A DNA stretch of 64,000 nt from Candidatus Kerfeldbacteria bacterium (GCA_016193315.1 JACPSJ010000001.1:219981-283980), one strand, 5' to 3'. Shown: positions 15,990-56,712, numbered from the stretch's first letter. Translations and numbers: made by a program. The notes: generated by a model from the sequence alone, not told the origin.

Positions 15990-17134
15990 AAGAAGGACAG
16001 CGGGTTCAGTGGTACACCGCGGGAACGGATTTCAAAATGGACGTGGGTGCCGGAACATCGTCCGGTACAACCCTGCATGGCAATGGTCTGTCCCTGGCTC
16101 ACTCGCTGGCCAGGACTAACAAAGACCTTGCTATCGTGAGAGTAGAGTGTCGAGTAGCCATTGCCGTGGTCGATGATGACGTGGAGACCGTAGCCGTTCC
16201 GACTGTAGGCAGCATACGTGACGGTGCCGCTGGCGGCCGCGTAGATGGGCGTGGTAGTCTCGCCATCGATGTCAATGCCGGTATGCCAGCGCCCGCGGAA
16301 GTACTGATTGATTCGGTGGCCGACCGTCGGCCAGATAAAGCGCGCGCCGCTGGCCGGCGCCGATGGCGGTGGGTTGTCAGACCGCGAGAAAACGCCAGCC
16401 AAGAACGTTCGCTGTGGCGGGGGAGCCGGCGGGGCCGGTGGTTCACCGCCGGGAATAATGATCTCTTGGCCGACTTCAATAGCTTCGGCCAATGGCACGT
16501 TGTTGGTCGCCAAGATTTCATCCTCGCGACCCTGGTAGCGGCTGGCGATGCTGCTGACCGTGTCTCCACTCTTGACGGTATAGAGGTAGCCGCTGACCGA
16601 AGGGATTTTCAGTACTTGGCCGGGCTTGATGAAATCAGTATCGCTCAAACCGTTAGCCCATAGAACGGTTCGACTGGAAATGCCAAATTGCTCGGCAATG
16701 GTACTGACCGTGTCGCCACCCTCGACGGTGTAGGTTTCTACGGTCCGCCGTTCGGTTACGACTTGACTGGCTCCGCCCACGGCCGGCGCGGCGTCAGACG
16801 TTGGGTTAGCCACGGTGCTGTCTGCGACGGGCGCTGAAACGAACAACTCCGGTCCGCCGACCGCGGCCAGGGCGACGTTGGACCGGCCGGTCTGGCCGGC
16901 GCCCGTTTCAACAATCAATTCGCTGTCGCCCTGGAAAAAGGAGTTCCACGGTGCGCCTTGCCCGATTTCATCCGGCCGGACCGTCCGGGCCAGCAGGTTA
17001 GTGGTCAAGCCAAAAATGCCCAAGGCGATTAGTCCCAAGTGGACGGCGTAGCGGTAGGAAAACTGGGTGACCGAGCGAATGCCAGCCAGCCGCGGGTGGA
17101 ATTTGATTTTCTGCTTGATCCGTACGTAGCGCAT
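15986..17134 (-). CDS. LysM-domain M23 family peptidoglycan endopeptidase with a signal-anchor
   Basis: Two LysM modules (YTVEGGDTVSTIAEQFGI and YTVKSGDTVSSIASRY) and M23 motifs (HTGIDIDG and GTHVHFEIR). The ORF-track start at 17485 would leave only 15 nt to leuS, so an internal Met was chosen. Confidence 0.8.
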   Translation of the reverse strand: MRYVRIKQKIKFHPRLAGIRSVTQFSYRYAVHLGLIALGIFGLTTNLLARTVRPDEIGQGAPWNSFFQGDSELIVETGAGQTGRSNVALAAVGGPELFVSAPVADSTVANPTSDAAPAVGGASQVVTERRTVETYTVEGGDTVSTIAEQFGISSRTVLWANGLSDTDFIKPGQVLKIPSVSGYLYTVKSGDTVSSIASRYQGREDEILATNNVPLAEAIEVGQEIIIPGGEPPAPPAPPPQRTFLAGVFSRSDNPPPSAPASGARFIWPTVGHRINQYFRGRWHTGIDIDGETTTPIYAAASGTVTYAAYSRNGYGLHVIIDHGNGYSTLYSHDSKVFVSPGQRVSQGQTIAMQGCTGRCSGTHVHFEIRSRGVPLNPLSFF

Positions 17135-17500
17135 GTAGAAGGGCAGCAGCAGTAGACGAAACACCCCGCGGCTGATCCAGCCGAGGGGCTTGAGCAGGGT
17201 TACCCGCAGGAGCAGGAGTAAACCCTTACCGGTCGCGGCCAGTCCACGGAGGACGTGGATGGCCAGGCGAACGATGGTTTGTTTGATCAGGATACTAATA
17301 GAGACTCCGTTCCACCCTATCGTCACCTTCCCCGGATCGCAACGAAACCACCATCCCAAGGCGTGGCGATAGGACTTAGTGTCGCCGAAATAGTGGGAGT
17401 GATAATACCAACTTGACCCAGACGTGTCAACGAAGATCTCCACAACTCGGCAATGTTTGTTTCGAAAACTTGTTACCTTAGCCAAAGGTTGGTACCCTGA

Positions 17501-20500
17501 ATGTCTATGGCTGCGTCAAAATACGACCATCAGGCAATCGAAAAGAAATGGCAGCAAAGCTGGGTGGAAGCGGGCGTATTTCGCCCACCTCTCCCCACCG
17601 GCGCTTCGCGCCACCCCCCCTCAACCCCCGCTGCTGCGGAGAGGGGAGGACGTTCTACGTACGTCCTCGACATGTTCCCCTACCCTTCGGCTGACGGACT
17701 GCACGTCGGCCACCCAGAAGGGTACACGGCCACGGATATCGTCAGTCGATATTTACGGATGAAAGGCATGACCGTGCTCCACCCAATGGGCTGGGATGCC
17801 TTCGGCCTTCCTACTGAGAACGCCGCGATCCAAAAAAAGATTCATCCCCGGATCGTGACCGAACAAAACGTCAAGAATTTCAAACGGCAAATTATGTCGC
17901 TTGGCTTTTCGTATGACTGGGGCCGTGAACTCAACACCACCGACCCGAAATACTACAAATGGACGCAGTGGATATTCCTGCAGCTGTTCAAAAAAGGGTT
18001 GGCCTACGAAGCGGAGTTACCGATTTGGTGGTGTCCGAAAGACAAAACTGGCTTGGCCAATGAAGAAGTGGTGGGCGGAGTCTGCGACCGGTGCGGGACG
18101 AAAGTCGAGCGGAAAATGCTGCGGCAGTGGGTCTTGAGAATTACTGCGTACGCCGAACGTCTGCTCAAAGGCTTGGATAAACTCAATTGGCCGGAGAACA
18201 TTAAGGCGCTGCAGCGGAATTGGATTGGGAAGAGCCAGGGGGCAGAGGTAGTGTTTGGGATAAAAACTCCGAGTGCGAAAAAGCCCCAACTTTTTATTAG
18301 CACGAAAAATCCAGCCAAGAAAAAGAGATATGTTCATATGTTTGCGCCGCTGGGGGTCGACATTGTTACCACTGATGATCTTGGAAAGTCTGTCACTGAT
18401 GTAGAAGTTGAGGAGGGAGAAGATATAAAAGAAAATGCCTTAAAGAAAGCACAGATTTTTCATCAAGCAACCGGCTTGCCGACGCTCGCTATTGATGAGG
18501 GCTTGATTATTGATACTTTTCCGGCCAACCAACAACCGGGCTCGCACGTTCGTCGTATCCCTGGCTTTTCTGGGCGCCCGACTGATGAAGATATGTCGAC
18601 GTATTACATCAATGAAGTGGTTAAACACGGAGGTGAAAGTCTGGTCCACTGGGAACACGCAATCGCTTATGTCGATGAATTCGGCGCGAAGGAGACACAG
18701 ATCAAGGTTACATCCAGTAAGATCGTAGCCACGAAAAGTAAAAAAGTAAAAGACGGATACCCCCTCGATTCACTTCTTATTGATTTGAAAACAGGAAAAT
18801 ACCGTTCCGAATTGACCCCCAAAGAAGATGAAGCTGCAATTCAGCCACTCACAGATGCACTAACCAGATTTGTCTCCGGGGCTTTATCAAAAAGCTCACA
18901 AGTCACGGTATTCACCACTCGTCCGGACACGCTCTTTGGCGCGACGTACCTGGTCTTGTCGCCAGAACACCCGCTGGTTGATGTGATTACCACTCCCGAA
19001 AAGAAGCCCGCTGTTGAGAAGTACAAGAAAGAGGTGGCCAGCAAGTCGGATCTTGAACGGACGGCGCTTGAAAAGGAAAAGACCGGCGTGTTCACGGGCG
19101 CGTACGCGATCAATCCGGTCAACAACGAAAAAATCCCAGTCTGGATCGCGGATTACGTTTTGATGTCGTATGGCACCGGCGCAATTATGGCTGTGCCGGC
19201 GCATGATGAGCGTGACTACGAATTTGCGAAGAAACACGAATTACCAATTCGGGAAGTTATTATTCCGTACCGCTATTACAAACCCAATCCGCCGCGGCCG
19301 GGGAAGAAAACGGTGGAACGAAGGAACATTCACCCCATCGTCAAGAACCCGAGAACCGGAAAGTTTTTGGCTCTTCGTTGGACAAAGCATCCATGGGTCA
19401 CGTTCCCGATGGGCGGCATCGACGGCAATGAAGACATCGTCAAAGCGGCCGAACGAGAAGTAGCCGAGGAAACGGGCTACACTGATCTGAAGTTTGAACG
19501 AGTCTTGGGCGGTCAGGTGAAGGCGGAATATTTTGCCGCTCACAAAAACGAAAACCGCGTAGCTTACACGCAGGCGGTAGTGTTTTCATTGCGCAGCGAG
19601 AAGAGAATTCCGGTTCCGGAGCATGAGCTGAAAGAACACGAAGTCATTTGGCTCGACCCCAAAGAACTCAATTCGCAGGTGATGGTTCATGCCGAACTTG
19701 ACGTCTGGCTCCATCGCTTAGCCAGAGATGAGCATGCATACACGGGCGAAGGAGCGCTGATTAACTCCGGTCAGTTCGACGGACTGACGAGCGAAGATGG
19801 GCGGAAGAAAATCGTGGAATGGCTTAAGACGCAAGGCAAAGCCAAACCAAAGGTGAATTATAAACTCCGCGACTGGGTGTTTTCGCGGCAGCGGTACTGG
19901 GGCGAACCGATTCCGCTGGTGCACTGCGAAAATTGTGCGAATATTGTCCAATCTACGAATTATACTCTCCATTTCTCTGATCGCGAGATTTGGGGAGATT
20001 TGTTGAGTGGCAAGAAAACGATTGAAACTCGGGCCCTTAACCCCGAAGAGCCCGAGCGGTATTTCGGCAATATCAAACCTGGACACGCTACACCCGAGTC
20101 GTACATCAAAGGCATCTTCAAGCCGACCGGCGAAGTCGCATACTTTCGCGTCAAAAGCGTAAGAATCTACAAATCGCTGCGAAAACTCTTTGTCGATAAG
20201 AAAGTTCACGCAAAGATTTGGCCCGATCGGACATTCAAGACCTTGGAAGAATTGCGCCAATCACATGACGAACTGACGCCTGGCAATGCCGCCAAGATCG
20301 ATAAGAACGGTCTGATTGCCTTTGAAATCAAGCACGTGTTACCTGGCATCATCCCACTCAAGGAAGATGAATTGCCGCTCGAACTCCCGGACGTTGAAAG
20401 ATACGAACCGACTGGGATTGGCGAATCACCGTTGGCCGCGATTAACGAATGGGTCAATGTGAAGTGCCGCGTTTGCGGTCATCCGGCCAAGCGCGAAACG

Positions 20501-21421
20501 AACACCATGCCGCAGTGGGCCGGATCGTGCTGGTATTACCTTCGGTTTACTGATCCGCACAACGATACAGCCATGGCCTCGCCTGAAGCGATGAAAGTCT
20601 GGTTGCCGGTAGATCTCTATGTCGGCGGCGCAGAACACGCCGTGCTCCACCTCCTGTACGCCCGTTTCTGGCACATGGTCCTCTATGATATAGGCGCAAT
20701 TCCGAAGGAGGTCGGCGGCGAGCCGTTCCTGAAATTGAAGAATCAAGGACTCATCCTCGGCCCGGACGGCGAAAAAATGTCCAAGTCGCGCGGGAATGTC
20801 ATCAACCCCGACGACATCGTGGCCAAGTACGGCGCCGATACCTTGCGGATGTACGAAATGTTCATGGGGCCGTTTGAAGATGCCAAACCATGGGATACAA
20901 ATGGGATTGTCGGGGTGCGGCGGTTTTTGGATAAGGTTTGGCGGGCGGCTGAACGTCTTGATAATTCGAAACCAAATGATCGGTGGCATAAGTATGCGAA
21001 TATGATTACTCGAGGCATTGAAGAGTTCAGGTTTAATACTTGTGTCAGCGATCTTATGAAGTGGGTGAATGAATGGGGCGCGAAGTCGGTGTCTAAGGAG
21101 GAAATTGAAGTGTTTTTGAAAGTCTTGTCACCATTCGCGCCGCATATGGCCGAAGAACTTTGGCAACAACTCGGACATGAAACAATGTTGGTTCAGGAAT
21201 CTTGGCCTGAGTTCGATCCAGATCTTCTGCGCGATGACACCGTTACAATTGCCGTACAGGTGAATGGAAAACATCGCGGGAATGTTATCGTTCCAACCGG
21301 CTCGAATGAGTCCGTCGTTCGCGAAGCGGCGCAAGCGGAAGCGAATGTGAAGAAGTATTTAACGAGCGAGCCTAAGAAAGTGATTTTTGTGAAGGATAGG
21401 CTGATTAATTTTGTAGTATAG
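17501..21421 (+). CDS. leuS: Leucyl-tRNA synthetase, 1306 aa, with three inserted accessory domains
   Basis: Class I motifs: HVGHPEGY (HIGH), TTRPDTLFGATY (editing domain), AVPAHDERDYEFA and KMSKS (EKMSKSRGNV). Insert 1 (about 18262-18900) resembles Ham1/ITPase: VDIVTTDDLG, LAIDEGLIID and PGSHVRRIPGFSG. Insert 2 (about 19264-19738) has the Nudix box GGIDGNEDIVKAAEREVAEETGY. Insert 3 (about 19948-20362) has the ASCH signature GKKTIETR (GxKxxExR). Confidence 0.9.
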   Translation: MSMAASKYDHQAIEKKWQQSWVEAGVFRPPLPTGASRHPPSTPAAAERGGRSTYVLDMFPYPSADGLHVGHPEGYTATDIVSRYLRMKGMTVLHPMGWDAFGLPTENAAIQKKIHPRIVTEQNVKNFKRQIMSLGFSYDWGRELNTTDPKYYKWTQWIFLQLFKKGLAYEAELPIWWCPKDKTGLANEEVVGGVCDRCGTKVERKMLRQWVLRITAYAERLLKGLDKLNWPENIKALQRNWIGKSQGAEVVFGIKTPSAKKPQLFISTKNPAKKKRYVHMFAPLGVDIVTTDDLGKSVTDVEVEEGEDIKENALKKAQIFHQATGLPTLAIDEGLIIDTFPANQQPGSHVRRIPGFSGRPTDEDMSTYYINEVVKHGGESLVHWEHAIAYVDEFGAKETQIKVTSSKIVATKSKKVKDGYPLDSLLIDLKTGKYRSELTPKEDEAAIQPLTDALTRFVSGALSKSSQVTVFTTRPDTLFGATYLVLSPEHPLVDVITTPEKKPAVEKYKKEVASKSDLERTALEKEKTGVFTGAYAINPVNNEKIPVWIADYVLMSYGTGAIMAVPAHDERDYEFAKKHELPIREVIIPYRYYKPNPPRPGKKTVERRNIHPIVKNPRTGKFLALRWTKHPWVTFPMGGIDGNEDIVKAAEREVAEETGYTDLKFERVLGGQVKAEYFAAHKNENRVAYTQAVVFSLRSEKRIPVPEHELKEHEVIWLDPKELNSQVMVHAELDVWLHRLARDEHAYTGEGALINSGQFDGLTSEDGRKKIVEWLKTQGKAKPKVNYKLRDWVFSRQRYWGEPIPLVHCENCANIVQSTNYTLHFSDREIWGDLLSGKKTIETRALNPEEPERYFGNIKPGHATPESYIKGIFKPTGEVAYFRVKSVRIYKSLRKLFVDKKVHAKIWPDRTFKTLEELRQSHDELTPGNAAKIDKNGLIAFEIKHVLPGIIPLKEDELPLELPDVERYEPTGIGESPLAAINEWVNVKCRVCGHPAKRETNTMPQWAGSCWYYLRFTDPHNDTAMASPEAMKVWLPVDLYVGGAEHAVLHLLYARFWHMVLYDIGAIPKEVGGEPFLKLKNQGLILGPDGEKMSKSRGNVINPDDIVAKYGADTLRMYEMFMGPFEDAKPWDTNGIVGVRRFLDKVWRAAERLDNSKPNDRWHKYANMITRGIEEFRFNTCVSDLMKWVNEWGAKSVSKEEIEVFLKVLSPFAPHMAEELWQQLGHETMLVQESWPEFDPDLLRDDTVTIAVQVNGKHRGNVIVPTGSNESVVREAAQAEANVKKYLTSEPKKVIFVKDRLINFVV

Positions 21422-21431
21422 ACTCTCTACT

Positions 21432-22385
21432 TTGCAACCCCTTGATAGAATTGATTACACGGGCGATATAAAGACATTACTTCAGAAGGTTTGTGGCTCA
21501 TTTGACATTGGCTTACTGCAAAAATATTCGTTGATAGAGACGGGTTACGAAGACTGCAATATTATCCTTGAAACAAAAGAAGGTAAGTTTTTATGTAAGA
21601 TTTTTTCAAAGAAAAGAACGCCAGCAGATGTTCAAAGGTACTCTGAAATAATGAAAAAAGTAGTTGAGGCTGGAGTGCGCCACCCTGAACTTCAAAAAAC
21701 TGAAAATCATCAAGTACTTTTTAGCCACAAAGCCCCAGCGCTTGTTTTGATGCGGTTTATCGAGGGCGAGACATTCCTCGAACTGGATCGACCACCGAAC
21801 AACTCTGAACGCAAGGACGTATTACAACAGGCGGCTATCATCAACGCCATTGATTTCACCCCACCGTACTTATTTGACTCTTGGGCCATCCCACATATTC
21901 ATACAATGTTTGATAAGGTCAAGAAGTATATTCAACCGGCGGACCGGCTACTGGTAAAACAAGCCATGGATCGATACGATGCTATCCCGGTCGCAAGCTT
22001 GCCCAAATGTTTCGTGCATGGTGATTTTACCAAGGCGAACATTCTCAAAGGGAACGACGGAAAGATTTATATTCTTGATTTCTCGGTCGCGAATCGATAC
22101 CCACGAATTCAAGAGTTAGCGGTCATCGCCGCCAATCTCATGTTTGAGAAGGGCAAGGATGGCTCGTTACCATCGACGTGTACGTCCCTTGCGACTGAAT
22201 ACAATTCATTCTTGCCGCTCACAAAAGACGAAATTGAGCATCTTTACCCCTATGCACTGGCCGGAGTGGCGATGGAATTTATGGGTGCTCATCAGGAGAA
22301 GTTTATCAACGGCAATGACACGGAAGAGACAAACTACTGGATGCATCTAGGTCGATCAGGTCTCAAGCAAGCACTAGGAAAATGA
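21432..22385 (+). CDS. Aminoglycoside/choline-kinase (APH/ChoK) family phosphotransferase
   Basis: Catalytic loop VHGDFTKANIL and metal-binding YILDFSVAN; about 42% GC. Confidence 0.7.
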   Translation: MQPLDRIDYTGDIKTLLQKVCGSFDIGLLQKYSLIETGYEDCNIILETKEGKFLCKIFSKKRTPADVQRYSEIMKKVVEAGVRHPELQKTENHQVLFSHKAPALVLMRFIEGETFLELDRPPNNSERKDVLQQAAIINAIDFTPPYLFDSWAIPHIHTMFDKVKKYIQPADRLLVKQAMDRYDAIPVASLPKCFVHGDFTKANILKGNDGKIYILDFSVANRYPRIQELAVIAANLMFEKGKDGSLPSTCTSLATEYNSFLPLTKDEIEHLYPYALAGVAMEFMGAHQEKFINGNDTEETNYWMHLGRSGLKQALGK

Positions 22386-22435
22386 TTTTCGTGGAGGATA
22401 ATCCGATTTGTATTTACCCTCAATGGATTTTCCGC

Positions 22436-22464
22436 TTGACTTCACCTTGGCAAGAGGATAGTAT
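22436..22464 (+). promoter_or_regulatory. Sigma70-like promoter TTGACT-17-TAGTAT, followed by two short GC hairpins in the 5-prime UTR
   Basis: TTGACT at 22436-41 and TAGTAT at 22459-64; hairpins GGTGGCGGACCACC and CCGCACCACGTCGGGTGCGG. Confidence 0.45.
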
Positions 22465-22506
22465 GGTCCTAACAAATTCTGGTGGCGGACCACCGCACCA
22501 CGTCGG

Positions 22507-22977
22507 GTGCGGGGCAAGATAACTATCTCTATGCGCCAAGAGCGTATTTCGACTAGGAAAAACATGAAAAAGTCGCTCCGGACCCTCGTTGAGGAAGGGT
22601 TTGGAAAAATAGGCATTCTTGAGAGCAAAGTGAACGGAGGGTTTGGGCGGGTCGCCAATCTCGAGAAAACGGTCAAGAAACTTGCGGCAACCATGCAGCA
22701 AGGCTTTCAGCGCATCGACCAACGCATGGACCGAGGCTTCATAAAAGTTCATGAGGATCACGAAGAATTGGCCAAGATGGTCAAGCAAGGGTTTGATGAT
22801 ATGGACGAACGGATCGACCAACGATTCAGTCATGTCGACCAACGGTTTGACACGGTCGATGCTGAAATTGGAGCAATCAATCGGCGGTTGGCTCAAGCCG
22901 TCTACCAAAACGAATTCGTGGCTCTTGAATCCCGGGTCACGACGTTGGAACGGCGGACGGGACTTTCGAAAAAGTAA
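22507..22977 (+). CDS. Hypothetical coiled-coil protein with internal short repeats (QGF.RIDQR.DRGF)
   Basis: Repeated Q-G-F/D-Q-R units; an alternative start is at 22564 (MKKSL). Confidence 0.4.
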   Translation: MRGKITISMRQERISTRKNMKKSLRTLVEEGFGKIGILESKVNGGFGRVANLEKTVKKLAATMQQGFQRIDQRMDRGFIKVHEDHEELAKMVKQGFDDMDERIDQRFSHVDQRFDTVDAEIGAINRRLAQAVYQNEFVALESRVTTLERRTGLSKK

Positions 22978-23015
22978 AAAAGCACCAAGACTGGCGCCAT
23001 CAAACGCTTTTTTGT

Positions 23016-23672
23016 TTGATTGAAATACGGTACAATCGGTGTGTGGTTGTTAGCAATAAAGCAAAATACATTCGGTCCGGTGAAGTTATTCTCTTTCCCA
23101 CCGAATCCTTCTACGCCCTTGGCGCGGACGCCACGAACGGGCGGGCGGTGAAAAAAATCTTTCGACTTAAGAGCCGTGCAAGAGGAAAACCGATCGCCGT
23201 CATGTGTGGCAGTTGGCGGCAAATAAAACAATACTTTGTCATGAACAAAACTGAGCGACAGTTCGCCCGTCAAAACTGGCCCGGGCCGGTGACGTTGTTA
23301 CTGAAACCAAGACGGCAGGTTGCGGCCGCGGCCTTGGCCCCGGTTGTCTCCTCACCCACCCTCTCCTCAGCGAGGAGAGGAAGTGGTGGAGGCCAAGGCC
23401 GCGGCCGGCACATTAGAATTGGCGTCCGTATTCCGGCCCACGCGCGAGCGAGAAAGCTCGCGCTGTCTGTGGGCGCGCCCATCACCGCCACCAGCGCTAA
23501 TCGGACAGGCAGACCGCCGACGAAATCCGCCGCTGCCGTCCGGCGAGCTTTTCCTGGTATGATGATTATGCCGGGGCGGTGCGGACGGCAGCGGCGGCCA
23601 TCGACCGTCATCGAAATTCGGCATGGTCAGATTGTCGTCTTGCGCCCGGGGGCACTGACATTGTCACCATGA
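23016..23672 (+). CDS. tsaC: L-threonylcarbamoyladenylate synthase (YrdC/Sua5 domain) carrying an in-frame palindromic insertion
   Basis: ILFPTESFYALGADATNGRAVKKIFRLKSRARGKPIAV and the C-terminal IRIGVRIPAH...TSANRTGRPP are YrdC motifs. The low-complexity segment AAAALAPVVSSPTLSSARRGSGGGQGRGR is encoded by an 86-bp inverted repeat. Confidence 0.7.
   Translation: MIEIRYNRCVVVSNKAKYIRSGEVILFPTESFYALGADATNGRAVKKIFRLKSRARGKPIAVMCGSWRQIKQYFVMNKTERQFARQNWPGPVTLLLKPRRQVAAAALAPVVSSPTLSSARRGSGGGQGRGRHIRIGVRIPAHARARKLALSVGAPITATSANRTGRPPTKSAAAVRRAFPGMMIMPGRCGRQRRPSTVIEIRHGQIVVLRPGALTLSP
23323..23408. repeat. 86-bp near-perfect palindromic element inserted in frame in tsaC
   Basis: Arms GCGGCCGCGGCCTTGGCC / GGCCAAGGCCGCGGCC (16/16 complementary) and an inner CTCTCCTC-AGC-GAGGAGAG. 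Confidence 0.55.
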
Positions 23673-23829
23673 TCCCGTTGGAAGTTTCCTTCTCCGACCG
23701 TCAGCAGTGTATCACGAACCAGCGCTTGGCTGGCTCTGCTTCTCACGGGATGATCCCGTCAGAGGGCTAACGAAGAAAGGAATTCGAATGCAAATTTTCC
23801 CGCTCGGTCCGCAATAACGCTCTCACGGG

Positions 23830-24984
23830 ATGATCCACTTTCCCCACCACTTTCCGCATTACTTCAAACAAAAGCTCAGTCTGCCGCTGGAAGAGCTGTA
23901 CTTGACGGCGGCGATGATGGATTTCGCCTCGGCGGCGATCACGCTCTTCGAGCCGATTTACCTCTGGACGCTCGGCTACCGGATTCCGCAGATCATGCTG
24001 TTTTACTTCATGGTCTACGGGGCGTACTATTTTCTCCTGCCGCTGGGCGGCAAGTTCGTGGCTCGAGTCGGACCTCAGCAGTCGATCTCGCTGTCCACCA
24101 TTTGGCTGGTGGCCTACATTGCCGCCTTGGTCGGCATCGCTTCAAATGGGGCGCTCTTTTTTGTGGCCCCCTTGCTGTTTGCTTTACAGAAGACTTTCTA
24201 CTGGCCAGCTTACCATTTCGAATTCATGCGGTTCTCGGTGCGGCAGGAGCGGGGGAGCGAGTTCTCGGGCTTGTGGACGGTGACAACGATGATGTATGTC
24301 CTGGGGCCGATCGTGGCCGGCGTGATCATCAAGTTCTTCGGTTTTCCGCCACTCTTCATCGGCGCGGCTGTAATCATCCTTTTTTCGAGCGCCCCCTTGT
24401 TTCACACGCCGCCGGCGCCGAAACGTGAAACGTATTCATACTGGCAGAGTTTCCTGTTGCCCTGGCGGCAACGTTACCGCCGCAGCACGGCCGGCTACCT
24501 CGGCACCGGCGAGGAGCTGATTGGCCTGACCGTGTGGCCGATCTTCATCCTGCTCATCTATGGCAACGTACTCAGTCTAGGACTATTGGTCGGGGCGAGC
24601 GCCCTGCTCACCTCAATCGCCACCCTGGCGGCCGGTAAGTGGGCTGATCGAAGCCAGAAGAAACGAATGCTATCAACCAGCAGCTTGATTCAGGCCGGGC
24701 TGTGGCTAGTGCGCCTCTTTGTTCGACATCCAGCCAGCGCCTTTGCCGTCGACACCGCTGGCCGCTCGATCCACAACGCCGTCTTTGTCAGCCAGTCAGC
24801 CATCACCTATGACCGAGCGCATCAGGATGACTACTCCTGGCATGGGGTCTACTATGAACAAGGATACGCCCTGGGCAAGTCCCTCATGGCGGCGGTGATC
24901 ATGATCCTGGCCAGTCTAATCGAGCCGTTTCAAGCCTCGTTTGTCATGGCCGCGCTGTTCAGCTTGTTCTATACGCTGTTCTAA
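23830..24984 (+). CDS. Polytopic membrane transporter, MFS-like
   Basis: About 12 predicted hydrophobic helices; no specific family motif confirmed. Confidence 0.45.
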   Translation: MIHFPHHFPHYFKQKLSLPLEELYLTAAMMDFASAAITLFEPIYLWTLGYRIPQIMLFYFMVYGAYYFLLPLGGKFVARVGPQQSISLSTIWLVAYIAALVGIASNGALFFVAPLLFALQKTFYWPAYHFEFMRFSVRQERGSEFSGLWTVTTMMYVLGPIVAGVIIKFFGFPPLFIGAAVIILFSSAPLFHTPPAPKRETYSYWQSFLLPWRQRYRRSTAGYLGTGEELIGLTVWPIFILLIYGNVLSLGLLVGASALLTSIATLAAGKWADRSQKKRMLSTSSLIQAGLWLVRLFVRHPASAFAVDTAGRSIHNAVFVSQSAITYDRAHQDDYSWHGVYYEQGYALGKSLMAAVIMILASLIEPFQASFVMAALFSLFYTLF

Positions 24985-26079: not shown

Positions 26080-26814
26080 ATGTTCGAAAACGACAAGTCG
26101 AAAGTCCGCCGGCCGGGGGTGGTCGATCGGCTGATCGATTTCCTCTCCGGTTCCGCCCCCGCCGCCTCGCTGGAAGGGCACCGGGCGTATCGGCTAGCGT
26201 TTTTTTTCGGCCTCCTTGGCCTGGGGTTAGGAGCTTGGCTCATCCGGCAAACCATTACGAGTCTTGGTCAGCAGCCTGTACCGTCGGTGACCAATGAGCA
26301 AACGCCGGTGGCCAAGCTGGCCGAGCTCAAAACGAAAGATACGGATGAGGACGGGTTATCCGACTTCGATGAACTCTACGGTAGCAAGACCAGCCCCTAC
26401 CTCCGCGATTCCGACAGCGACGGCGTGGCCGACGGGGACGAGCTGAGGCAAGGAACTGATCCGAACTGTCCCTCCGGAAAAGCGTGTGCCGGCATTGTCG
26501 GCGGGGGTCCAACCACCGACAGCGGCGGCCAACTGACGCCCGAGTTTCTTCGCCAAGCCCTTCGCGATTCCGGGGTGGCGCAGAACACGCTCGAGGGCCT
26601 GTCCGACGATCAATTACTCGGTCTCTACCAACAGGTCGTTCAGGGGGCCACGAACACCAATGCCTTGGCCAGCATCACGCTCGATGATCTCAAGAAACTG
26701 TCAGGCGACGAAGTGCGCCAGCTGCTCCAGGACAGCGGTATCAGTAGCGAGGAGTTGAGTAAACTCGATGACGCGACATTAAAAAAAATCTTTCAGCAAG
26801 CACTCGAGCAGTGA
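26080..26814 (+). CDS. Membrane-anchored protein with TSP3-like acidic Ca-binding repeats; first gene of the giant locus
   Basis: TM anchor AYRLAFFFGLLGLGLGAWLI, then DTDEDGLSDFDELYG...DSDSDGVADGDELRQGTDPNC. Its stop overlaps the next start (GTGA). Confidence 0.45.
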   Translation: MFENDKSKVRRPGVVDRLIDFLSGSAPAASLEGHRAYRLAFFFGLLGLGLGAWLIRQTITSLGQQPVPSVTNEQTPVAKLAELKTKDTDEDGLSDFDELYGSKTSPYLRDSDSDGVADGDELRQGTDPNCPSGKACAGIVGGGPTTDSGGQLTPEFLRQALRDSGVAQNTLEGLSDDQLLGLYQQVVQGATNTNALASITLDDLKKLSGDEVRQLLQDSGISSEELSKLDDATLKKIFQQALEQ

Positions 26815-29800
26815 ACGTCCAACATCCTAACCCGCGCCGCTTTCCGACCAGCCGTTTCCTGGCCGCACTGCTCGCCTTCCTGACGGTGGTGGTGGTGTTC
26901 CGCACCTTCCAGCCACGGCCGGCGGAAGCCATTCTGGGCGTTGGCGACGTATCCGTCACGGTCGGAGATATTCCGCGGATTATCTTCCAATTCGTCGACG
27001 CCGCCCGCAAGCGGGTAGGCGCGATCCTGAAGGTCGCCGGCGACATTGCCTTCAAGAACACGCTGGAGATCTACAATGCCAAGATCGCGCAAGAGATCCT
27101 GACACAAATCAGTACCGCCGGCCCGGGCCAGAAACCGCTGTTCCTGACGAATCCGAAAACTTTTTTCCGTGACGTGGCCAATTCGGCGGCCGGAGATTTC
27201 ATTGACGAATTCACCCGGGGATTGACCGGCGAACGGGGGCCGGGGACGGCCTTCAGCTCCGCCCGCCAGCGCTTCATTATTTCACGGATCTTGCGGATCG
27301 GAGTCGGCAGCCCGGTTGAACAGTGCCGCGATAGTTGTCGGTCCACCTATAGCGTCGGGAACATCGACCTGGCGGGAGTCAAAGAATACTCCGATGAGGA
27401 ATTCCGGCAGCTGACCCAGGCCAGTTTTCGGAATGAGTTTGAATGGCGGATTGTTAATGTCCAGCGGCGGATTGACACGGTGACAAAACCAGCCATCGAC
27501 CATCAGGAGAGCGAAATCGTCTGCCGTGACGTGGCGTTACCAGCCGGACCGCCGCTGCCGGGACAAAACTACCTGCCGTGGCAAATTCAGCTCGGTGCCT
27601 GCGGCGAGGCGGTGCCGCCGCCGGAGTGTACAACGGCTCCGCAAGAATGTTTGAACCGCCAGCAGGAGGCCATCAATACGGAACGAGCCTCGGCCCAACA
27701 GCTGACCAACCAGTGTCTGCGGGATTGTCAGAGTGGATTGGCCGGTCTGGCCTCGGACGCCATCAACCAGGCTACAGCCACCGACATCTTCAACGCCACC
27801 ATCGAGTTAGATACTCGTCAAGCGACTCGCGCCATTACCCAAGAATTGTCGCGCGACAACAGCGATATTGGCAAGACGCTCTACTCTTTTGCTCAGTTGT
27901 ACGATACGGTTCAGGAACAAATCACGGCCGCCAAGACCGAGTTGGAAGCCGGGGCCAAGCCCCGCACGTCGAAAGTCAGCGAGGTGGTGCTGGTGCCGAA
28001 GGAAGCCAACCAACAAAGCCTCTTCACCGCCCTGGTTGGCGGCGACGACGCCAAGAAGATTTACACCGGCACCACGGCCGCCGATATTATCAAGGGCGTG
28101 GCCGCTTTCATTAATAGCCCGCTGTTCAAGGTGCTGACCTTGTATTTTAAGCACCAGTGCGGACTCAACACCGAAGCCTGCCGCGGGCCGTCGCAGCCGA
28201 CCTCGACACTCGGGCAGCTGCTCTTCGGCTCCGGCGGGCCAACCGGCCTGGCCGGGGCCCGGCTGCAATTCTCGACCGTTGGTCAAACCAAGTTCCTGAC
28301 CGGTGACCCCGGCCGGAACGAAGTCGACATCCCCAATGAGTTGGCGTCGGCCGGACTGATTGACGCCCAATTTCGGAACGCGATCGAGGACCGTCTGACG
28401 GTTCAAGAAGCACTGGACAAAGGGACGCTCGACCCGCGGAAGACTTTTGGGTTTGACCGTAACGGCGTTCAGCCGCGCGACGGCTATCCGTTCCGCGCTC
28501 TCCAGTACCTGCGAAAGTACCGCGTCGTCCCGGTCGGCTGGGAACTGGCCGCCAACTTCAGCTTACAATTCGATCCCCGCGACCTCAGTTTCGGTTTTCT
28601 GACTAAGCAGTTCAACCTCTGCGGCCAGGACGAGACTCACCGAGTCTGTACGAATGACCCCAATACGAGCTGTCAGGCGGACGATGACTGCAGCGGCAAC
28701 CGCTGCGGCGCCAGCCCGTACTGCGGCCTGGTTGATCCGAACTGGGTGCTCAAAGCGCCGCAGACGTACTGCCGCCGGCAAGGTGCCGGCGAGGAAATCA
28801 TCACCAAGGAATTCGTCTGCGATGAGAATAATATCCGGTCCATCGACGGAGTAGTCATCAACCCAGCATTCCAAGACGCCGGTCCGGACGGCATTCCCAC
28901 TACCCCTGACGATCAAGACAATAATCCACCCAACTGCGTCAAGGACGAACTCCGGAATGTCCACCCCGACCTCGGTCGTTGGGTCGTCAGCCGAAACACC
29001 AACACCTGCGCCGATACCCAGTCGTGCATCGCTGAGAACGACGACGGCACGTGTATTGCTTTCGGCTATTGCGTCCAGGAACGCCAGCAATTCCGCTTCG
29101 ACGGCACCCAGTGCGACGCCGAGTTCGCCAGCTGCACCACCTATACCGACGATCAAGGACAACCAGCGTCGTACCTGGCCAGCACGCTTGACTTCCGCAA
29201 CTGCAACGCCGACGTGGCCGGCTGCCAGTGGTATTGTCAAAACTACGACGCCGAAGCGCAACGCTGGACCTGCGGCGAGCCGCCCGGCAACGATGATCCC
29301 AGCGTCGTCAATGACATCATTCGTTTCACCAGCAACGTTCAAGCCTGCAACCAAAGCCAGGCCGGCTGTCGGCAATTTGTCCGGACCTCGAACGGATCGA
29401 ACCTGCTGCCCAACGGCGGCTTTGAAATTTTCTCCGGCGCCGAGCTCGACAGCGGGTTGGTAGCCAACTATGACAGTTGGAACAAAATTGGCGGGATCGG
29501 AACGTTTCCGGTTTCGGCCAGCGACCCGGATGTCACATCAAGTAACCGGGCGGCTATCAAGTTGACGGGGGGTGCGGGCGATGAACTTAGCGCGACCATC
29601 GATACCGGCTATGCTCTCTACGAGCGATCGTTTTCGGCCTCCATTCGGGCCCGGGCCGATTCAAGTTGCACCGCCAGCCTGGAAATGGACACCGACGTGG
29701 TCAGCTCGGGACAAGTGGTAACGATCGGCCCGAGCTGGGCGACTCAGGCGTTGTCAATCGTCATCCCAGAGGAGGAGAGGGTTCGTTCGTTTAGCAATGC

Positions 29801-32396
29801 GTTAACATTTACCATCAAGGTCGAAGGCTGCGGCGGCGCCAACCTAGTAGTCGACAGTGCCCAGCTGGAAGAAAGCGGCCTAACCCAATTCAAAGACTAC
29901 GGCCAGATCAACGCCGTCTACCTTAACGGGACGCGGCGCTCATGTACCACCGCCGATGTCGGCTGCGAATCGTACACGCCGCTGGCTGGCGGATCGGCCA
30001 TCACGGCTCAAGTCCGCAACAGCAACCGTTGTACTGAAGACAAGGTTGGTTGCGCGACCTACACGCTTGAACCGCTGCCTGGTCCCATTCCGCGACCGGG
30101 CGGATCGGTCAACATCATCGCGCCAAAAGGCCAGTCCTGCTCCGCCAGCAACGTTGGTTGCGAAGAGTATACTAATCTCGACGAAGTCGCCCGGGGCGGG
30201 GAAGGGAAAGAATACTATCAGTCGGTCAAACAGTGCGTCCGACCTAAATCCGGCGATCCTAGCCAGGCCACCTACTACACTTGGGTCGGCGATGCTGCTC
30301 GTGGCTTTATCCTGCGGAGCCACACGCTCCTGAAATCGAACATCGACGCCAGCCCCTGTACCCACCCCACGGTTGGCGCGCCGCGGGACGAACCGGTTTG
30401 CGACGATGCCGGCCGGGTCGATACCTCGGCTATCTGTAATGCCGATACCTTATCCAGCAATCCAGACTGCGCCGAATTCTACGATTCGTCTTTCAGCGTC
30501 TACTACCGGCTACGCTCGCTAACCGTTTCGGTAACCGACGATTGTCATCCGTATCGGAACAGCGTTGATCAGACCGACGCCGATCCAGGTAACGACGACA
30601 ACATCTACTTCCTGGCGCCCAAGGAAAACGTGGCTTGCCCGGCCACCGCCGCTGGTTGTCGAGCCTATACCGGCAATGCCGGACGGTCGACGAGAACTAT
30701 CTTCAGCGATACCTATGAGAGCGGCACGACCGCCAACTGGGTTGGCGGGCTGCCGGTGACCGAATCAACTAGCCTCGGCGGGCACTCGATGCATATTCCA
30801 TTGCCTGGAGGAGCGCCACGTGCGGCGGCCTACACCGACACCGACGTGCTGCCGGGGAAACTGGCCGACGGCAAGAACTACGTGGTCACCTTCTGGGCGG
30901 CGGCGGCCAACAGCGCCAGCCACCTGGCGACGATCAAAGCCAGTTTCGGCTCCGTTACCGGTAGGTCCTATAACGAAGATCAAATATTCGGCAGCGGGCA
31001 GCTTCGCTGGAATGAGAGTATTACCCCGGCTGGGCCGGAGTGGCAGCGCTACACCCTCGGTCCGCTGCAGCTGATTGGCAACACCGCTCGGCTCGGCATT
31101 ACGGTCACGGGTGGCGAGGCCTACGTTGATAACGTCACCTTGACTGAGATCAACGACAGTCTCTATCTCGTCAGCTCAACCGTGCCGCTCTGTGAGGCGG
31201 CTGATGTTGGTTGCGCCGCCTACCGCGATCGGGCCGGCGCCCGACACTATCTCAAATCCTTCACCCGTCTCTGCGCCGAGCAGGTCGTCGGTTGCGAAGC
31301 GATGGTTGACACCCAAAACAGCAGCACCCCGTTTGCCCAAGTGGTGAAGAACGAATTGACACCGGAGGACGCGGTGGTGACCGCGGTAAATAACCGCGCC
31401 GCCTACTGTCCGGCGGCCACTAAGGGTTGCCAGGCGCTCGGTAAACCGACCTACACGAACGACCGAGTCATCACCGGCTACCAGACGGTCTACCTCAAGA
31501 ACGACCCCGATCAGCATGCCCGCGACTTGTGTCTGAACGAAGAGTTATTCTGCCGGGCCTATACTACCGCCAGCGGATCGGCCGCCTTCTTCAAAGACCC
31601 AGCCCACCAAACCTGCGAGTTTCGATCGAACGCCAGCGATGTCGGCGGCCAGTGGTACGTCAGCGGCACCAACATCTTTTGCCCGACGATTACCCCGCCA
31701 TTGTCCGGTCGCCCGCTCGGCCCATCGTGCAGCCCCACCTGTGAGACTACCCCTGACTCGCTCCGGGCTGGCAAAGCCTGCGTTCGGGACGTCGACTGTC
31801 CGAAGGATGGCGGCGGGAATGTCCGCTGTCTAGGCGATGCCAGCAAAGTCGGCAAGATCAAAGATAGCGGCGGTAACTTCGTCTTCGGGCAGTGTGCCAG
31901 TGACACCGACTGCGATCCGGTCACTGGTAACAAATGCCGCTACTTGGCGGGCCTCTGTCCGGACGAACAAAACGGCTGCAATGAGTATCGCGATCCGACC
32001 GATCCGGCTGGCTGTCGGAGCGAGTGTCCGTTGATTCAGGTCGGTGGCAGCCCGCTCTACGTTGACGCCACGTGCGCGACCACCCGCTGCTCCTACCAAT
32101 GTCTCGGCGGGACGTGCGAAGGAGGTCCGGATGACGGGCTGGCTTGCGGTAGCGACGCGGAGTGTAATGTTCATTCCGGCAACTGTCAGGCCAGTGAACA
32201 GTGTGGCCCGGGCGGGCAGTGTCTCGGCAGCAACGGCCTGACCACCACCGGTATCCCCGGCTGCCGCCCCTACTATTACCTCCGGCAGACGGTGGAGACC
32301 AATGCCGTTGATTGCAACGGCCAAGTCAACCTGGAAACTCGCTGCCGACCATTCAATGACACGTCGAAACCGATCCTTAACGTGCGTGGTGGATAA
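26811..32396 (+). CDS. Giant secreted cysteine-rich repeat protein (1861 aa)
   Basis: N-terminal signal-anchor; recurring VGC[AE]xYT/GCxAY motif (ADVGCESYTPLAG, DKVGCATYTLEP, SNVGCEEYTNLDE, AAGCRAYTGNAG, ADVGCAAYRDRAG, VVGCEAMVDTQ, TKGCQALGKPTY); very Cys-rich C-terminal quarter. Confidence 0.7.
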   Translation: MNVQHPNPRRFPTSRFLAALLAFLTVVVVFRTFQPRPAEAILGVGDVSVTVGDIPRIIFQFVDAARKRVGAILKVAGDIAFKNTLEIYNAKIAQEILTQISTAGPGQKPLFLTNPKTFFRDVANSAAGDFIDEFTRGLTGERGPGTAFSSARQRFIISRILRIGVGSPVEQCRDSCRSTYSVGNIDLAGVKEYSDEEFRQLTQASFRNEFEWRIVNVQRRIDTVTKPAIDHQESEIVCRDVALPAGPPLPGQNYLPWQIQLGACGEAVPPPECTTAPQECLNRQQEAINTERASAQQLTNQCLRDCQSGLAGLASDAINQATATDIFNATIELDTRQATRAITQELSRDNSDIGKTLYSFAQLYDTVQEQITAAKTELEAGAKPRTSKVSEVVLVPKEANQQSLFTALVGGDDAKKIYTGTTAADIIKGVAAFINSPLFKVLTLYFKHQCGLNTEACRGPSQPTSTLGQLLFGSGGPTGLAGARLQFSTVGQTKFLTGDPGRNEVDIPNELASAGLIDAQFRNAIEDRLTVQEALDKGTLDPRKTFGFDRNGVQPRDGYPFRALQYLRKYRVVPVGWELAANFSLQFDPRDLSFGFLTKQFNLCGQDETHRVCTNDPNTSCQADDDCSGNRCGASPYCGLVDPNWVLKAPQTYCRRQGAGEEIITKEFVCDENNIRSIDGVVINPAFQDAGPDGIPTTPDDQDNNPPNCVKDELRNVHPDLGRWVVSRNTNTCADTQSCIAENDDGTCIAFGYCVQERQQFRFDGTQCDAEFASCTTYTDDQGQPASYLASTLDFRNCNADVAGCQWYCQNYDAEAQRWTCGEPPGNDDPSVVNDIIRFTSNVQACNQSQAGCRQFVRTSNGSNLLPNGGFEIFSGAELDSGLVANYDSWNKIGGIGTFPVSASDPDVTSSNRAAIKLTGGAGDELSATIDTGYALYERSFSASIRARADSSCTASLEMDTDVVSSGQVVTIGPSWATQALSIVIPEEERVRSFSNALTFTIKVEGCGGANLVVDSAQLEESGLTQFKDYGQINAVYLNGTRRSCTTADVGCESYTPLAGGSAITAQVRNSNRCTEDKVGCATYTLEPLPGPIPRPGGSVNIIAPKGQSCSASNVGCEEYTNLDEVARGGEGKEYYQSVKQCVRPKSGDPSQATYYTWVGDAARGFILRSHTLLKSNIDASPCTHPTVGAPRDEPVCDDAGRVDTSAICNADTLSSNPDCAEFYDSSFSVYYRLRSLTVSVTDDCHPYRNSVDQTDADPGNDDNIYFLAPKENVACPATAAGCRAYTGNAGRSTRTIFSDTYESGTTANWVGGLPVTESTSLGGHSMHIPLPGGAPRAAAYTDTDVLPGKLADGKNYVVTFWAAAANSASHLATIKASFGSVTGRSYNEDQIFGSGQLRWNESITPAGPEWQRYTLGPLQLIGNTARLGITVTGGEAYVDNVTLTEINDSLYLVSSTVPLCEAADVGCAAYRDRAGARHYLKSFTRLCAEQVVGCEAMVDTQNSSTPFAQVVKNELTPEDAVVTAVNNRAAYCPAATKGCQALGKPTYTNDRVITGYQTVYLKNDPDQHARDLCLNEELFCRAYTTASGSAAFFKDPAHQTCEFRSNASDVGGQWYVSGTNIFCPTITPPLSGRPLGPSCSPTCETTPDSLRAGKACVRDVDCPKDGGGNVRCLGDASKVGKIKDSGGNFVFGQCASDTDCDPVTGNKCRYLAGLCPDEQNGCNEYRDPTDPAGCRSECPLIQVGGSPLYVDATCATTRCSYQCLGGTCEGGPDDGLACGSDAECNVHSGNCQASEQCGPGGQCLGSNGLTTTGIPGCRPYYYLRQTVETNAVDCNGQVNLETRCRPFNDTSKPILNVRGG

Positions 32397-32398
32397 CG

Positions 32399-36499: not shown

Positions 36500-36500
36500 G

Positions 36501-56287: not shown

Positions 56288-56362
56288 GTCCCTATAGCTC
56301 AGTCCGGATAGAGCGTCAGCTTGCGGAGCTGAAGGTCGCAGGTTCAAATCCTGCTGGGGACG
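56288..56362 (+). tRNA. tRNA-Arg-like, anticodon read as GCG; embedded in a 13-bp leader/trailer extension of the acceptor stem
   Basis: GTCCCTA TA GCTC AGTCCGGAT AGAGC G TCAGC TTGCGGA GCTGA AGGTC GCAGG TTCAAAT CCTGC TGGGGAC G. Flanks TTTTTCGCTGAGC / GCTCAGCGAAAAA are complementary. Confidence 0.8.
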
Positions 56363-56410
56363 CTCAGCGAAAAAAGAGGCAGGCTTGTCCCGTGGATTCT
56401 AGCGGAGCGA

Positions 56411-56448
56411 GGATCTATAGGGGATTCAAATCCTGTCGGGCGCGCCAG
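56411..56448 (+). other. tRNA 3-prime fragment (T-loop-like TTCAAAT + acceptor CGGGCGC + G + CCA), complementary to the 5-prime fragment at 56136
   Basis: CGGGCGC is the exact complement of GCGCCCG; the T-stem pairing is imperfect. Confidence 0.35.
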
Positions 56449-56449
56449 G

Positions 56450-56476
56450 GAAGGGTGGCCGAGTGGGTTGCGGCGG
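56450..56476 (+). other. tRNA-Ser-type 5-prime fragment (acceptor GGAAGGG + class II D-arm), followed by long GC hairpins
   Basis: GGAAGGG TG GCC GAGTGGGTTGC GGC, similar to the 5-prime end of tRNA-Ser(GCT); its 3-prime partner is at 56748-56810. Confidence 0.4.
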
Positions 56477-56622
56477 GGTGCGAACGCAAAGCAAATGAAC
56501 TGCTTCATTTGCGTCCCGCCGCAACGGGCGCGGCCATGTTCCGGAGGAACGAACGCGCCCAGGAAGAAAAATTTGGATTGAACCGGCGACCTTAAAAAAC
56601 GATCAACCGAGCAGCTCCTGGC

Positions 56623-56712
56623 GGAGAGGTGGCCGAGTGGCTGAAGGCAGCGGTTTGCTAAACCGTTATATGGTCAAAAGCCGTATCGTGGGTTCGAATC
56701 CCACCCTCTCCG
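56623..56712 (+). tRNA. tRNA-Ser(GCT), CCA encoded, flanked by 11-12-bp leader/trailer complementarity
   Basis: GGAGAGG TG GCC GAGTGGCTGAA GGC A GCGGT TTGCTAA ACCGT [long variable arm] GTGGG TTCGAAT CCCAC CCTCTCC G CCA. Confidence 0.85.

Follow-up and report, generated by a model that had tools for sequence, protein, structure and literature searches.

A leucyl-tRNA synthetase with Ham1-like, Nudix and ASCH domains inserted in frame, and variable filling of the same insertion sites in its bacterial relatives

Aminoacyl-tRNA synthetases (aaRSs) are among the most conserved enzymes, and the bacterial ones are usually thought to be architecturally fixed, the accretion of extra domains being regarded as a eukaryotic theme. 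Eukaryotic aaRSs carry appended GST, WHEP, EMAPII and other domains, which also add functions but are mostly terminal, non-catalytic interaction modules. A class Ia synthetase with an unrelated enzyme domain in the same polypeptide has, in addition, been catalogued by NCBI as NF040702 (ileS_w_GNAT). As these cases are known, the general kind of protein described here is not new. The subject of this paper is a leucyl-tRNA synthetase (LeuRS) encoded in a stretch of 64,000 nucleotides (the window) from a Candidatus Kerfeldbacteria bacterium (GCA_016193315.1, JACPSJ010000001.1:219981-283980). It differs from the eukaryotic proteins in that its extra domains belong to hydrolase families, are internal, occur in a bacterium and, among relatives, occupy their sites in variable combinations. 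It differs from NF040702, where the host is an isoleucyl-tRNA synthetase and the added chemistry is that of an acetyltransferase, and scored 56 bits against that model, whose cut-off is 1999, which is no meaningful match.

The leuS gene lies at 17501..21421 on the + strand, as do all the features of the gene given below. It is a complete open reading frame (ORF) that starts with ATG and encodes 1306 amino acids, the stop codon being included in the span. An initial annotation, made from the sequence alone, had described it as a LeuRS with three in-frame inserts, and every peptide string quoted there is present in the translation. The bacterial LeuRS model of NCBIfam, TIGR00396 (leuS_bact), gave 1008.4 bits against an equivalog cut-off of 548.4, and Pfam detected the LeuRS editing domain (PF13603, E 1.4e-65), tRNA-synt_1 and Anticodon_1 in the whole protein. 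Alignment with the LeuRS of Thermus thermophilus (1H3N) produced five collinear blocks, and the gaps between the first four of these are the three inserts. The LeuRS hallmark motifs are therefore present and collinear, and the inserts are found in the places that had been named for them, the insertion points falling at T. thermophilus residues 239, 364-373 and 443.

The first block (aa 1-257; 17501..18271) comprises the N-terminal part of the catalytic domain, the ZN-1 region and the first strand of the editing domain, and aligns with T. thermophilus residues 2-239; its HIGH motif reads HVGH (aa 68-71, nt 17702-17713). Insert 1, a divergent domain of the Ham1/ITPase family (aa 258-463; 18272..18889), is placed at residue 239, where the CP1 editing domain starts, with the GAEV.F strand on one side and TTRPDT on the other. 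The central part of that domain (aa 464-588; 18890..19264; PF13603), aligned with residues 239-363, contains TTRPDT (aa 472-477) and AHDERD (aa 567-572). Insert 2, a Nudix hydrolase domain (aa 589-743; 19265..19729), takes the place of residues 364-373, late in the editing domain. The end of the editing domain and the return to the catalytic core (aa 744-813; 19730..19939) align with residues 374-443 and finish on the first CxxC of the second zinc knuckle (HCENC, C809/C812), in which C809 is invariant. Insert 3, a GKER-type ASCH domain (aa 814-948; 19940..20344), is at residue 443, directly past this CxxC. The second half of the catalytic core (aa 949-1160; 20345..20980) aligns with residues 443-579 and resumes at 637; it holds the second CxxC (C989/C992) and KMSKS (aa 1092-1096, nt 20774-20788). 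The protein ends with the anticodon-binding and C-terminal domain (aa 1161-1306; 20981..21418; PF08264 at aa 1161-1272), which is aligned with the C-terminus of the T. thermophilus enzyme.

The core is thus collinear with T. thermophilus LeuRS (1H3N/2BYT) through the HIGH motif, ZN-1, the T-rich and AHD.RD motifs of CP1, the second zinc knuckle, KMSKS and the C-terminal domains. Relative to that enzyme the protein gains 496 residues in the three inserted domains and lacks one stretch. Between blocks 4 and 5 the gap is reversed: residues 580-636 are present in T. thermophilus and missing from the query and nearly all its close relatives, the matching region being 9 residues long in 120 of the 121 sequences of the survey described below. 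When the inserts are taken away about 810 aa remain, which is the size of insert-free relatives (790-820 aa). In a 69-sequence alignment HVGH (H68, V69, G70, H71), KMSKS (K1092-S1096), TTRPDT and HD.RD (568-572) are invariant, and so are the editing-site residues T472, T473, R474, D476, T477, H568, D569, R571 and D572. By these motifs the synthetase appears intact, editing site included, and its core retains every hallmark needed for aminoacylation and editing.

An AlphaFold2 (AF2) model of residues 1-1200 was coherent, with a mean predicted local distance difference test score (pLDDT) of 85.5 and a predicted template modelling score of 0.76. The pLDDT was 95-98 in the Nudix domain, 87-97 in the ASCH domain, mostly above 85 in the core and about 72 in the Ham1 insert, which was covered by four sequences only in the underlying alignment. 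Shortly ahead of the HIGH motif is a Pro/Ala/Gly-rich stretch, PPLPTGASRHPPSTPAAAERGGRS (aa 28-52; 17582-17656), which is some 15 residues longer than in most relatives and has a pLDDT below 50; it is probably a disordered expansion of an N-terminal loop.

The sequence is of the metagenome type and the GC content at third codon positions (GC3) of the Ham1 insert is 42% against 62% in the core, so that a chimeric misassembly, a possibility raised in the initial annotation, or a disrupted pseudogene had to be considered. Either is now hardly credible. The frame is open for 1306 codons, and a separate assembly (Logan SRR12113425) has a 33-kb contig on which an identical 1306-aa product is called, with the same neighbours. 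In another NCBI assembly the protein P0003, 59% identical over 97% of the query, has all three inserts, and its Ham1 insert has a similarly low GC3 (43%, with approximate alignment boundaries). The order of genes at that locus is that of the query: a ComM-like ATPase, a LysM/M23 peptidase on the opposite strand, LeuRS, Sua5/YrdC and an MFS transporter. In dozens of relatives the inserts fall at precisely these residues, AF2 modelled host and inserts together with confidence, and the insert boundaries have no flanking direct or inverted repeats, only short chance-like matches. The open frame, the second assembly, the syntenic orthologue, the lack of repeats and the model effectively refute an artefact. 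A Pfam scan of the LeuRS found no intein or homing-endonuclease domain and, with no repeats at the boundaries, insertion in the manner of a mobile element was rejected as well.

The inserts had also been described as lower in GC than the synthetase core, which was taken to suggest acquisition. This was found to be true of insert 1 (45.0% GC, GC3 42%) when compared with the core (52.9% GC, GC3 62%). It does not apply to insert 2 (53.1% GC, GC3 61%), which is indistinguishable from the core, and applies weakly to insert 3 (47.2% GC, GC3 56%), which is intermediate; moreover, the core's own C-terminal domain is equally GC-poor (46%). Low GC was therefore rejected as proof that all three inserts were acquired. 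The signal in the Ham1 insert fits a separate history, and it neither dates the acquisition nor gives its source; a free-standing Ham1 relative, P0121, is GC-rich (GC3 74%).

Insert 1 was matched at aa 265-444 by the Pfam family Ham1p_like (PF01725), with 45.1 bits in the whole protein (E 1.3e-11, cut-off 22.5) and 50.1 bits in the isolated insert (E 4e-13). Single-sequence comparison with E. coli RdgB (1K7K) gave E 1.2e-6, and a profile of the Ham1-like family run against the PDB found 3TQU at E 2e-12. The RdgB/HAM1 equivalog TIGR00042 was not reached, at 34.4 bits against a cut-off of 145.35. What the insert has in common with RdgB/ITPA (PF01725; 1K7K, 3TQU) is the N-terminal half, with T-x-N-x-x-K, ENA..K and the catalytic Asp. 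Residues T268, N270, K273, N312, A313, K316 and D332 are invariant in six members, four embedded and two free-standing, and D332 is aligned with the catalytic Asp of RdgB, D69 (the D69A variant of RdgB is PDB entry 2PYU). The C-terminal half of RdgB has FGYDP and SHR motifs, which have a role in base recognition. Both are absent from the inserts and from their free-standing relatives, the alignment showing DGYPLD for FGYDP and QPL for SHR. The assignment to Ham1 in the initial annotation is therefore upheld at the level of the family, and its equation with RdgB is not: the motifs and scores make insert 1 a divergent subfamily of the Ham1 superfamily, not an RdgB orthologue. It is plausibly still a nucleotide pyrophosphatase.

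The closest relatives of insert 1 are two free-standing proteins, P0121 and P0122, which have about 200 aa, 38-41% identity to it and the same motif pattern. The insert of the query is 38% identical to the free-standing proteins and 27-33% identical to the other embedded copies, whose LeuRS cores are 62-77% identical. The gene for P0121 directly adjoins one for an Fpg/Nei DNA glycosylase (L081 1-8090, GCA_016294905.1) and begins on the final base of the latter, position 4001 being shared by the two; this proximity may be a hint to the substrate. This pair is downstream of a YefM/YoeB toxin-antitoxin pair, and an M23 peptidase gene is nearby.

That insert 2 contains a canonical Nudix box between blocks of the editing domain was confirmed. 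PF00293 (NUDIX) gave 44.9 bits in the whole protein (E 1.5e-11, cut-off 21.1) and 49 bits in the isolated insert (E 8e-13). The box, GGIDGNEDIVKAAEREVAEETGY (aa 638-660, nt 19412-19480), agrees with G-x5-E-x7-R-E-U-x-E-E-x-G-U at G638, E644, R652, E653, V654, A655, E656, E657, T658, G659 and Y660. Embedded copies in 37 LeuRS sequences are 27-76% identical to that of the query; box positions G1, G2, E7, R15, E16, E19, E20 and G22 are kept in 36-37 of the 37, and K45 and R49 of the family are conserved likewise. A downstream motif specific to the family, [YF][FY]A.HK..NR, is also conserved, and all 37 copies have an aromatic residue 17 positions past the box, which may be a marker of ApnA hydrolases.

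The best solved matches to the Nudix profile were AvrM14 (8DP8/8DP9), lupin Ap4A hydrolase (1F3Y), DIPP and Dcp2, all weak (E 1e-9 to 1e-5), and the best match of a single-sequence search was RppH (5YGU). The canonical box is common to this group of ApnA hydrolases and decapping enzymes and to the insert, but the similarity is weak (E 1e-9 or worse) and the LeuRS family has the downstream motif as its own. They are a weak hint that the substrate is a dinucleoside polyphosphate or a cap-like end of RNA. Free-standing proteins related to the insert were also found (P0123-P0127), the free-standing Nudix and Ham1 relatives together being at 37-46% identity.

The ASCH assignment of insert 3 was settled in another way. 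PF04266 (ASCH) gave 19.4-19.7 bits for the query, below the gathering cut-off of 21.2, and at E <= 0.01 it matched 4 of the 26 members of the family at this site; profile searches of the PDB with the family were sub-threshold or marginal. It was therefore the fold that decided, insert 3 having the ASCH beta-barrel. The signature GxKxxExR is present as GKKTIETR (aa 837-844, nt 20009-20032). There is no exception to its G, K, E and R among 26 copies, which are 39-66% identical to that of the query and share an extended invariant motif, RALNPEEP.RYFG. Whereas the ASCH proteins compared with it are free-standing (PH0355, 2Z0T; YqfB, 9KYF; EF3133, 1T62; the ASCH protein 3S9X; and GKER-type tRNA erasers), the LeuRS ASCH domain is embedded, and it differs from them too in scoring under the Pfam gathering threshold, in the extra RALNPEEP.RYFG motif and in an added helical segment.

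According to a recent preprint (10.64898/2026.02.27.708502), 19 ASCH proteins, GKER-type ones included, strip N4-acetylcytidine (ac4C) from tRNA, and in the GKER type the Lys and Glu form the dyad essential for this. ASCH proteins were reported there to differ in nucleic-acid binding, some depending on a separate tRNA-binding domain. The initial annotation was right about the signature and the domain, and its grouping of ASCH with nucleotide-sanitising enzymes has to be dropped, the characterised relatives being ac4C amidohydrolases and tRNA ac4C erasers. Taken together, the profile and fold searches detected all three of the domain types that it had proposed.

Conservation of the Nudix box, the ASCH GKER residues and the Ham1 residues across divergent copies indicates that purifying selection acts on the catalytic signatures of the inserts. 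It also bears on the idea that the inserts are pseudoenzymes, serving as tRNA-binding or structural elements (for example through the PUA-like fold of ASCH) and making up for the absent stretch 580-636. The near-invariance of the Nudix box and of the ASCH Lys and Glu would not be expected for a purely structural role, and insert-free relatives also do without the 580-636 stretch, so that no compensation is required. Non-catalytic modules are thus improbable.

The reading preferred here, to which a probability of about 0.5 is given, is that LeuRS is a scaffold for accessory hydrolases that work on its tRNA and its nucleotide by-products. On this view the enzyme is a working LeuRS, three loops of which (two in CP1, one in the second zinc knuckle) each contain an accessory hydrolase that folds on its own. 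The synthetase would bring substrates and by-products to the enzymes tethered to it. The ASCH domain is predicted to bind synthetase-held tRNA and to strip it of N4-acetyl or related N-acyl groups; a GKER-type ASCH domain embedded in a synthetase would gain tRNA binding. Ap4A is a side product of aminoacyl-adenylate chemistry, and the predicted role of the Nudix domain is hydrolysis of dinucleoside polyphosphates such as Ap4A, or of cap-like RNA 5' ends. The Ham1-like domain is predicted to hydrolyse non-canonical NTPs near the ATP-consuming active site. As close relatives lack one or more of the inserts, these appear to be accessory and not required for aminoacylation itself. The coupling of aminoacylation to NTP or RNA quality control at which the initial annotation hinted is conjectural.

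The relatives were surveyed as the best 120 homologues together with the query (121 sequences); as the homologues were ranked by score against an insert-bearing query, the prevalence figures that follow are inflated. Insert lengths were mapped at the three sites, the inserts were clustered, and a rough neighbour-joining tree was built from the masked core. The Nudix family was found at site 2 only (37/121, query counted), the ASCH family at site 3 only (29/121) and the Ham1-like family at site 1 only (4/121). A Ser_hydrolase-type alpha/beta-hydrolase family (PF06821) contributed 10 copies at site 1, three at site 2 and seven at site 3, which group by site, and rarer inserts included a different ASCH domain at site 1 and a different Nudix domain at site 2. 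The named insert-bearing relatives are from Kerfeldbacteria, Buchananbacteria, Paceibacterota and 'Patescibacteria group', with one labelled only 'bacterium'. The closest relative in the homology search is 72% identical to the query, and P0004, a Nudix-bearing LeuRS, is 71% identical.

The three sites are therefore insertion hot spots, filled in varied combinations from a small repertoire (Nudix, ASCH, Ham1 and Ser_hydrolase). P0003 has the same architecture as the query and P0001 has Nudix and ASCH. The arrangement is not a singular one: among the relatives examined it is one combination in a modular system, and the ASCH family is found in other aaRS families too.

Sister sequences in the rough tree often differ in occupancy. 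The query, with Ham1, Nudix and ASCH, stands beside P0022, which has no insert, and P0001 stands beside P0019, which has none either. Identity between inserts tracks identity between cores weakly (Spearman 0.16 for Nudix and 0.48 for ASCH). Simple vertical inheritance of the inserts was rejected on both grounds. These observations, together with the greater closeness of the query's Ham1 insert to free-standing proteins than to other embedded copies, indicate that the inserts underwent frequent gain, loss or exchange, repeated gain not being cleanly separated from repeated loss or recombination.

Several members of the survey call for separate mention. In P0020, P0021 and P0026 the insert at site 3 has 78 aa and clusters with ASCH, but the GKER motif is lost (EEQTINNAV for GKKTIETRAL); these are probably decayed ASCH remnants. 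P0058 and P0062 have a 126-aa insert at site 2 without a Pfam match (E <= 1). The site-2 'insert' of P0091 duplicates part of the editing domain, the series SPEH...AVPAHD...FAKKF...LPIIEVLKSEVDVQKQAWT being present twice; either the gene contains an internal tandem duplication or the entry was misassembled. In a metagenome-assembled genome (MAG) of Candidatus Doudnabacteria (L009 5947-11729) a weakly LeuRS-like 482-aa ORF is close to a 941-aa LeuRS, both being class I aaRSs. An apparent giant LeuRS of 5.7 kb at this place was rejected as two adjacent aaRS genes merged; the real LeuRS is the 941-aa protein, with an insert of about 183 aa at site 1. Two MAGs labelled 'uncultured Gammaproteobacteria bacterium' (L002 and L075) also have long LeuRS genes, and the taxonomic labels of these bins look unreliable.

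A patchy distribution with fast turnover resembles that of conflict systems, and the chemistries in the repertoire are those of amidohydrolases, esterases and pyrophosphatases. Embedded hydrolases might, then, give immunity in situ by detoxifying inhibitors or toxin products at their target, such as aminoacyl-adenylate mimics or the N-acetylated aminoacyl-tRNA made by GNAT toxins; the IleRS with an embedded N-acetyltransferase listed in NCBIfam could be set beside this. Against it, PADLOC gave no match for LeuRS or either neighbour, on which ground a defence system was rejected, and no toxin or antibiotic gene is beside leuS in the window or at the orthologous locus. The idea is entirely speculative, and its prospects are slightly poorer even than those of the non-catalytic modules.

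The hosts of the ASCH family tell more about the scaffold proposal. A profile of the site-3 ASCH domain was searched against 1.84 billion representative proteins and gave 203 members at E <= 1e-3. The best 150 of the 203 were sized, 18 multidomain matches were scanned with Pfam and the LeuRS fragments were identified by BLAST. Among these 150, 110 have 200 aa or fewer and are free-standing, and 26 have more than 400 aa. All of the latter but one are aaRSs (25/26), the exception being P0151 (410 aa), an ASCH-Ser_hydrolase fusion. That fusion and a NUDIX-ASCH fusion are the only two non-aaRS proteins among the multidomain matches scanned. The most economical explanation for multidomain hosts that are almost all aaRSs would be that embedding supplies tRNA binding.

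These hosts include LeuRS, valyl-tRNA synthetase (recognised by its Val_tRNA-synt_C arm), other class Ia enzymes that also bear a histidine phosphatase or Ser_hydrolase domain, and a class IIb enzyme of the Asp/Lys/Asn type (P0159). The most heavily loaded aaRS observed is P0170 (1287 aa, Logan), a class II alanyl-tRNA synthetase with ASCH, guanylate kinase, Ham1 and Ser_hydrolase domains. Another, P0135, is a LeuRS of 1330 aa with NUDIX, ASCH and a canonical Ham1 domain (E 3e-58), the last of which is inserted where the catalytic core passes into the anticodon-binding domain, a fourth site. Its domain families are those of the query and its Ham1 domain is at another site, so the Nudix/ASCH/Ham1 trio came together in LeuRS on at least two occasions, in different arrangements. 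A member of the P0135 cluster, MCK5490653.1 (Candidatus Paceibacterota), has no name in nr other than 'RdgB/HAM1 family non-canonical purine NTP pyrophosphatase', an error of annotation due to the embedded Ham1 domain. Elsewhere in the public databases the insert-bearing proteins are annotated as plain LeuRS.

It may be that the inserts are simply hitch-hiking, whether neutrally or for economy: ordinary housekeeping enzymes of nucleotide-pool sanitation and salvage that came to lodge in tolerant loops of a gene which is essential and constitutively expressed, with no functional link to leucylation or tRNA and acting on free small molecules as their free-standing relatives do. Such relatives exist for Ham1, Nudix and ASCH. 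Weak coupling of insert divergence to core divergence, the decayed 78-aa remnants, variable placement and occupancy, relatives that manage without inserts, and guanylate kinase and histidine phosphatase in the repertoire are all in keeping with it. Random capture by essential genes should, however, reach other hosts too, and in a profile search with no bias towards aaRSs the multidomain hosts examined were all aaRSs but two, from at least four families and both classes. The assembly of the trio in LeuRS at least twice, with different geometry, is a further difficulty. Hitch-hiking is accordingly regarded as a serious possibility, though not the favoured one.

Several of the same observations weigh against LeuRS as a functional scaffold. 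One domain type can be found at different sites (the alpha/beta-hydrolase at 1, 2 or 3, ASCH at 1 or 3, Ham1 at 1 or the fourth), and sister LeuRSs differ in the sites that are occupied. This independence of site, with relatives doing without inserts, speaks against domains that are tightly coupled, through their geometry, to a single active site of LeuRS. Nor is there an obvious tRNA substrate for guanylate kinase or histidine phosphatase. The proposed Nudix substrate goes back to weak matches, and in this superfamily sequence similarity is a poor guide to the substrate; the activity of the Ham1 domain is uncertain, as it has no FGYDP or SHR, is far under the RdgB cut-off and has the weakest model confidence.

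An extension of the scaffold proposal, which is rather unlikely as it stands and is put forward tentatively, is that Patescibacteria aaRSs of several families and both classes are scaffolds for an exchangeable toolkit of tRNA- and nucleotide-processing enzymes that act on the tRNA or adenylate by-products which the synthetase holds. These would physically couple tRNA demodification or repair and the clearance of by-products to charging, a layer of translational quality control that is not known from model bacteria. Its members, as predicted from their families, would be an ASCH deacylase, Nudix, Ham1, a Ser_hydrolase esterase, histidine phosphatase and guanylate kinase.

The surroundings of leuS were also analysed. 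The window has 58% GC overall; the leuS neighbourhood (16000-24000) has 50-54%, and most of the other blocks of 4 kb have about 60%. Next after leuS, at 21432-22385, is a gene for an APH-type kinase-like protein, with 36-47% GC at its start; at the orthologous locus L082 a patatin gene is in its position. ClpB, RecG, a TraG-like ATPase and giant Ig/fn3-type surface proteins are encoded elsewhere in the window. This content is in keeping with a genome of the Patescibacteria type, an assignment for which the named LeuRS relatives are the main evidence. Four consecutive giant ORFs (1861, 1366, 1579 and 967 aa) are at 26811-43333 (+). Two have no Pfam match at all and two have solely Ig-like, fn3 and BNR-type domains, and the latter two are therefore likely to be surface proteins. 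The listed coordinates of ORFs 32399-36499 and 35694-40433 have some 800 nt in common, so that the second ORF probably begins later than listed. The only Rfam or tRNA-scan matches in the window are a cluster of tRNA-Arg(GCG), tRNA-Ser(GCT) and tRNA-Ser(TGA) at 56288-57188 (+), far from leuS. No tRNA-Leu was found in the window by the tRNA scan, and it contains no second aaRS or second leuS.

Full-text literature searches on extra domains in LeuRS or other aaRSs gave no description of this architecture, the sole relevant paper being the ASCH tRNA-eraser preprint. A 2026 survey of domain insertions deals with the LeuRS editing domain as an inserted unit and at no point as the recipient of one. 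The presence in a bacterial LeuRS of internal catalytic domains of the Ham1, Nudix, ASCH and alpha/beta-hydrolase families, with two such inserts lying in the editing domain, appears to be new, as do the organisation of the inserts at hot spots in a mix-and-match fashion and the recurrence of the same repertoire over several aaRS families of Patescibacteria.

A bacterial lineage with very small genomes has, then, repeatedly lodged whole domains of catalytic type in its leucyl, valyl/isoleucyl-type, alanyl and class IIb synthetases. Even if the inserts are hitch-hiking, they provide a natural map of the loops of a class I synthetase that tolerate insertion, useful for protein engineering. They also flag annotation errors such as the 1330-aa LeuRS named 'RdgB/HAM1' in nr, and call for caution in the use of LeuRS length and alignments as phylogenetic markers for these bacteria. 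If LeuRS is indeed a scaffold, with domains acting on synthetase-bound tRNA or on the by-products of adenylate chemistry, this would be a new coupling of tRNA charging to RNA or nucleotide quality control, and it would provide a natural mechanism of delivery for the newly proposed ASCH erasers of ac4C in tRNA.

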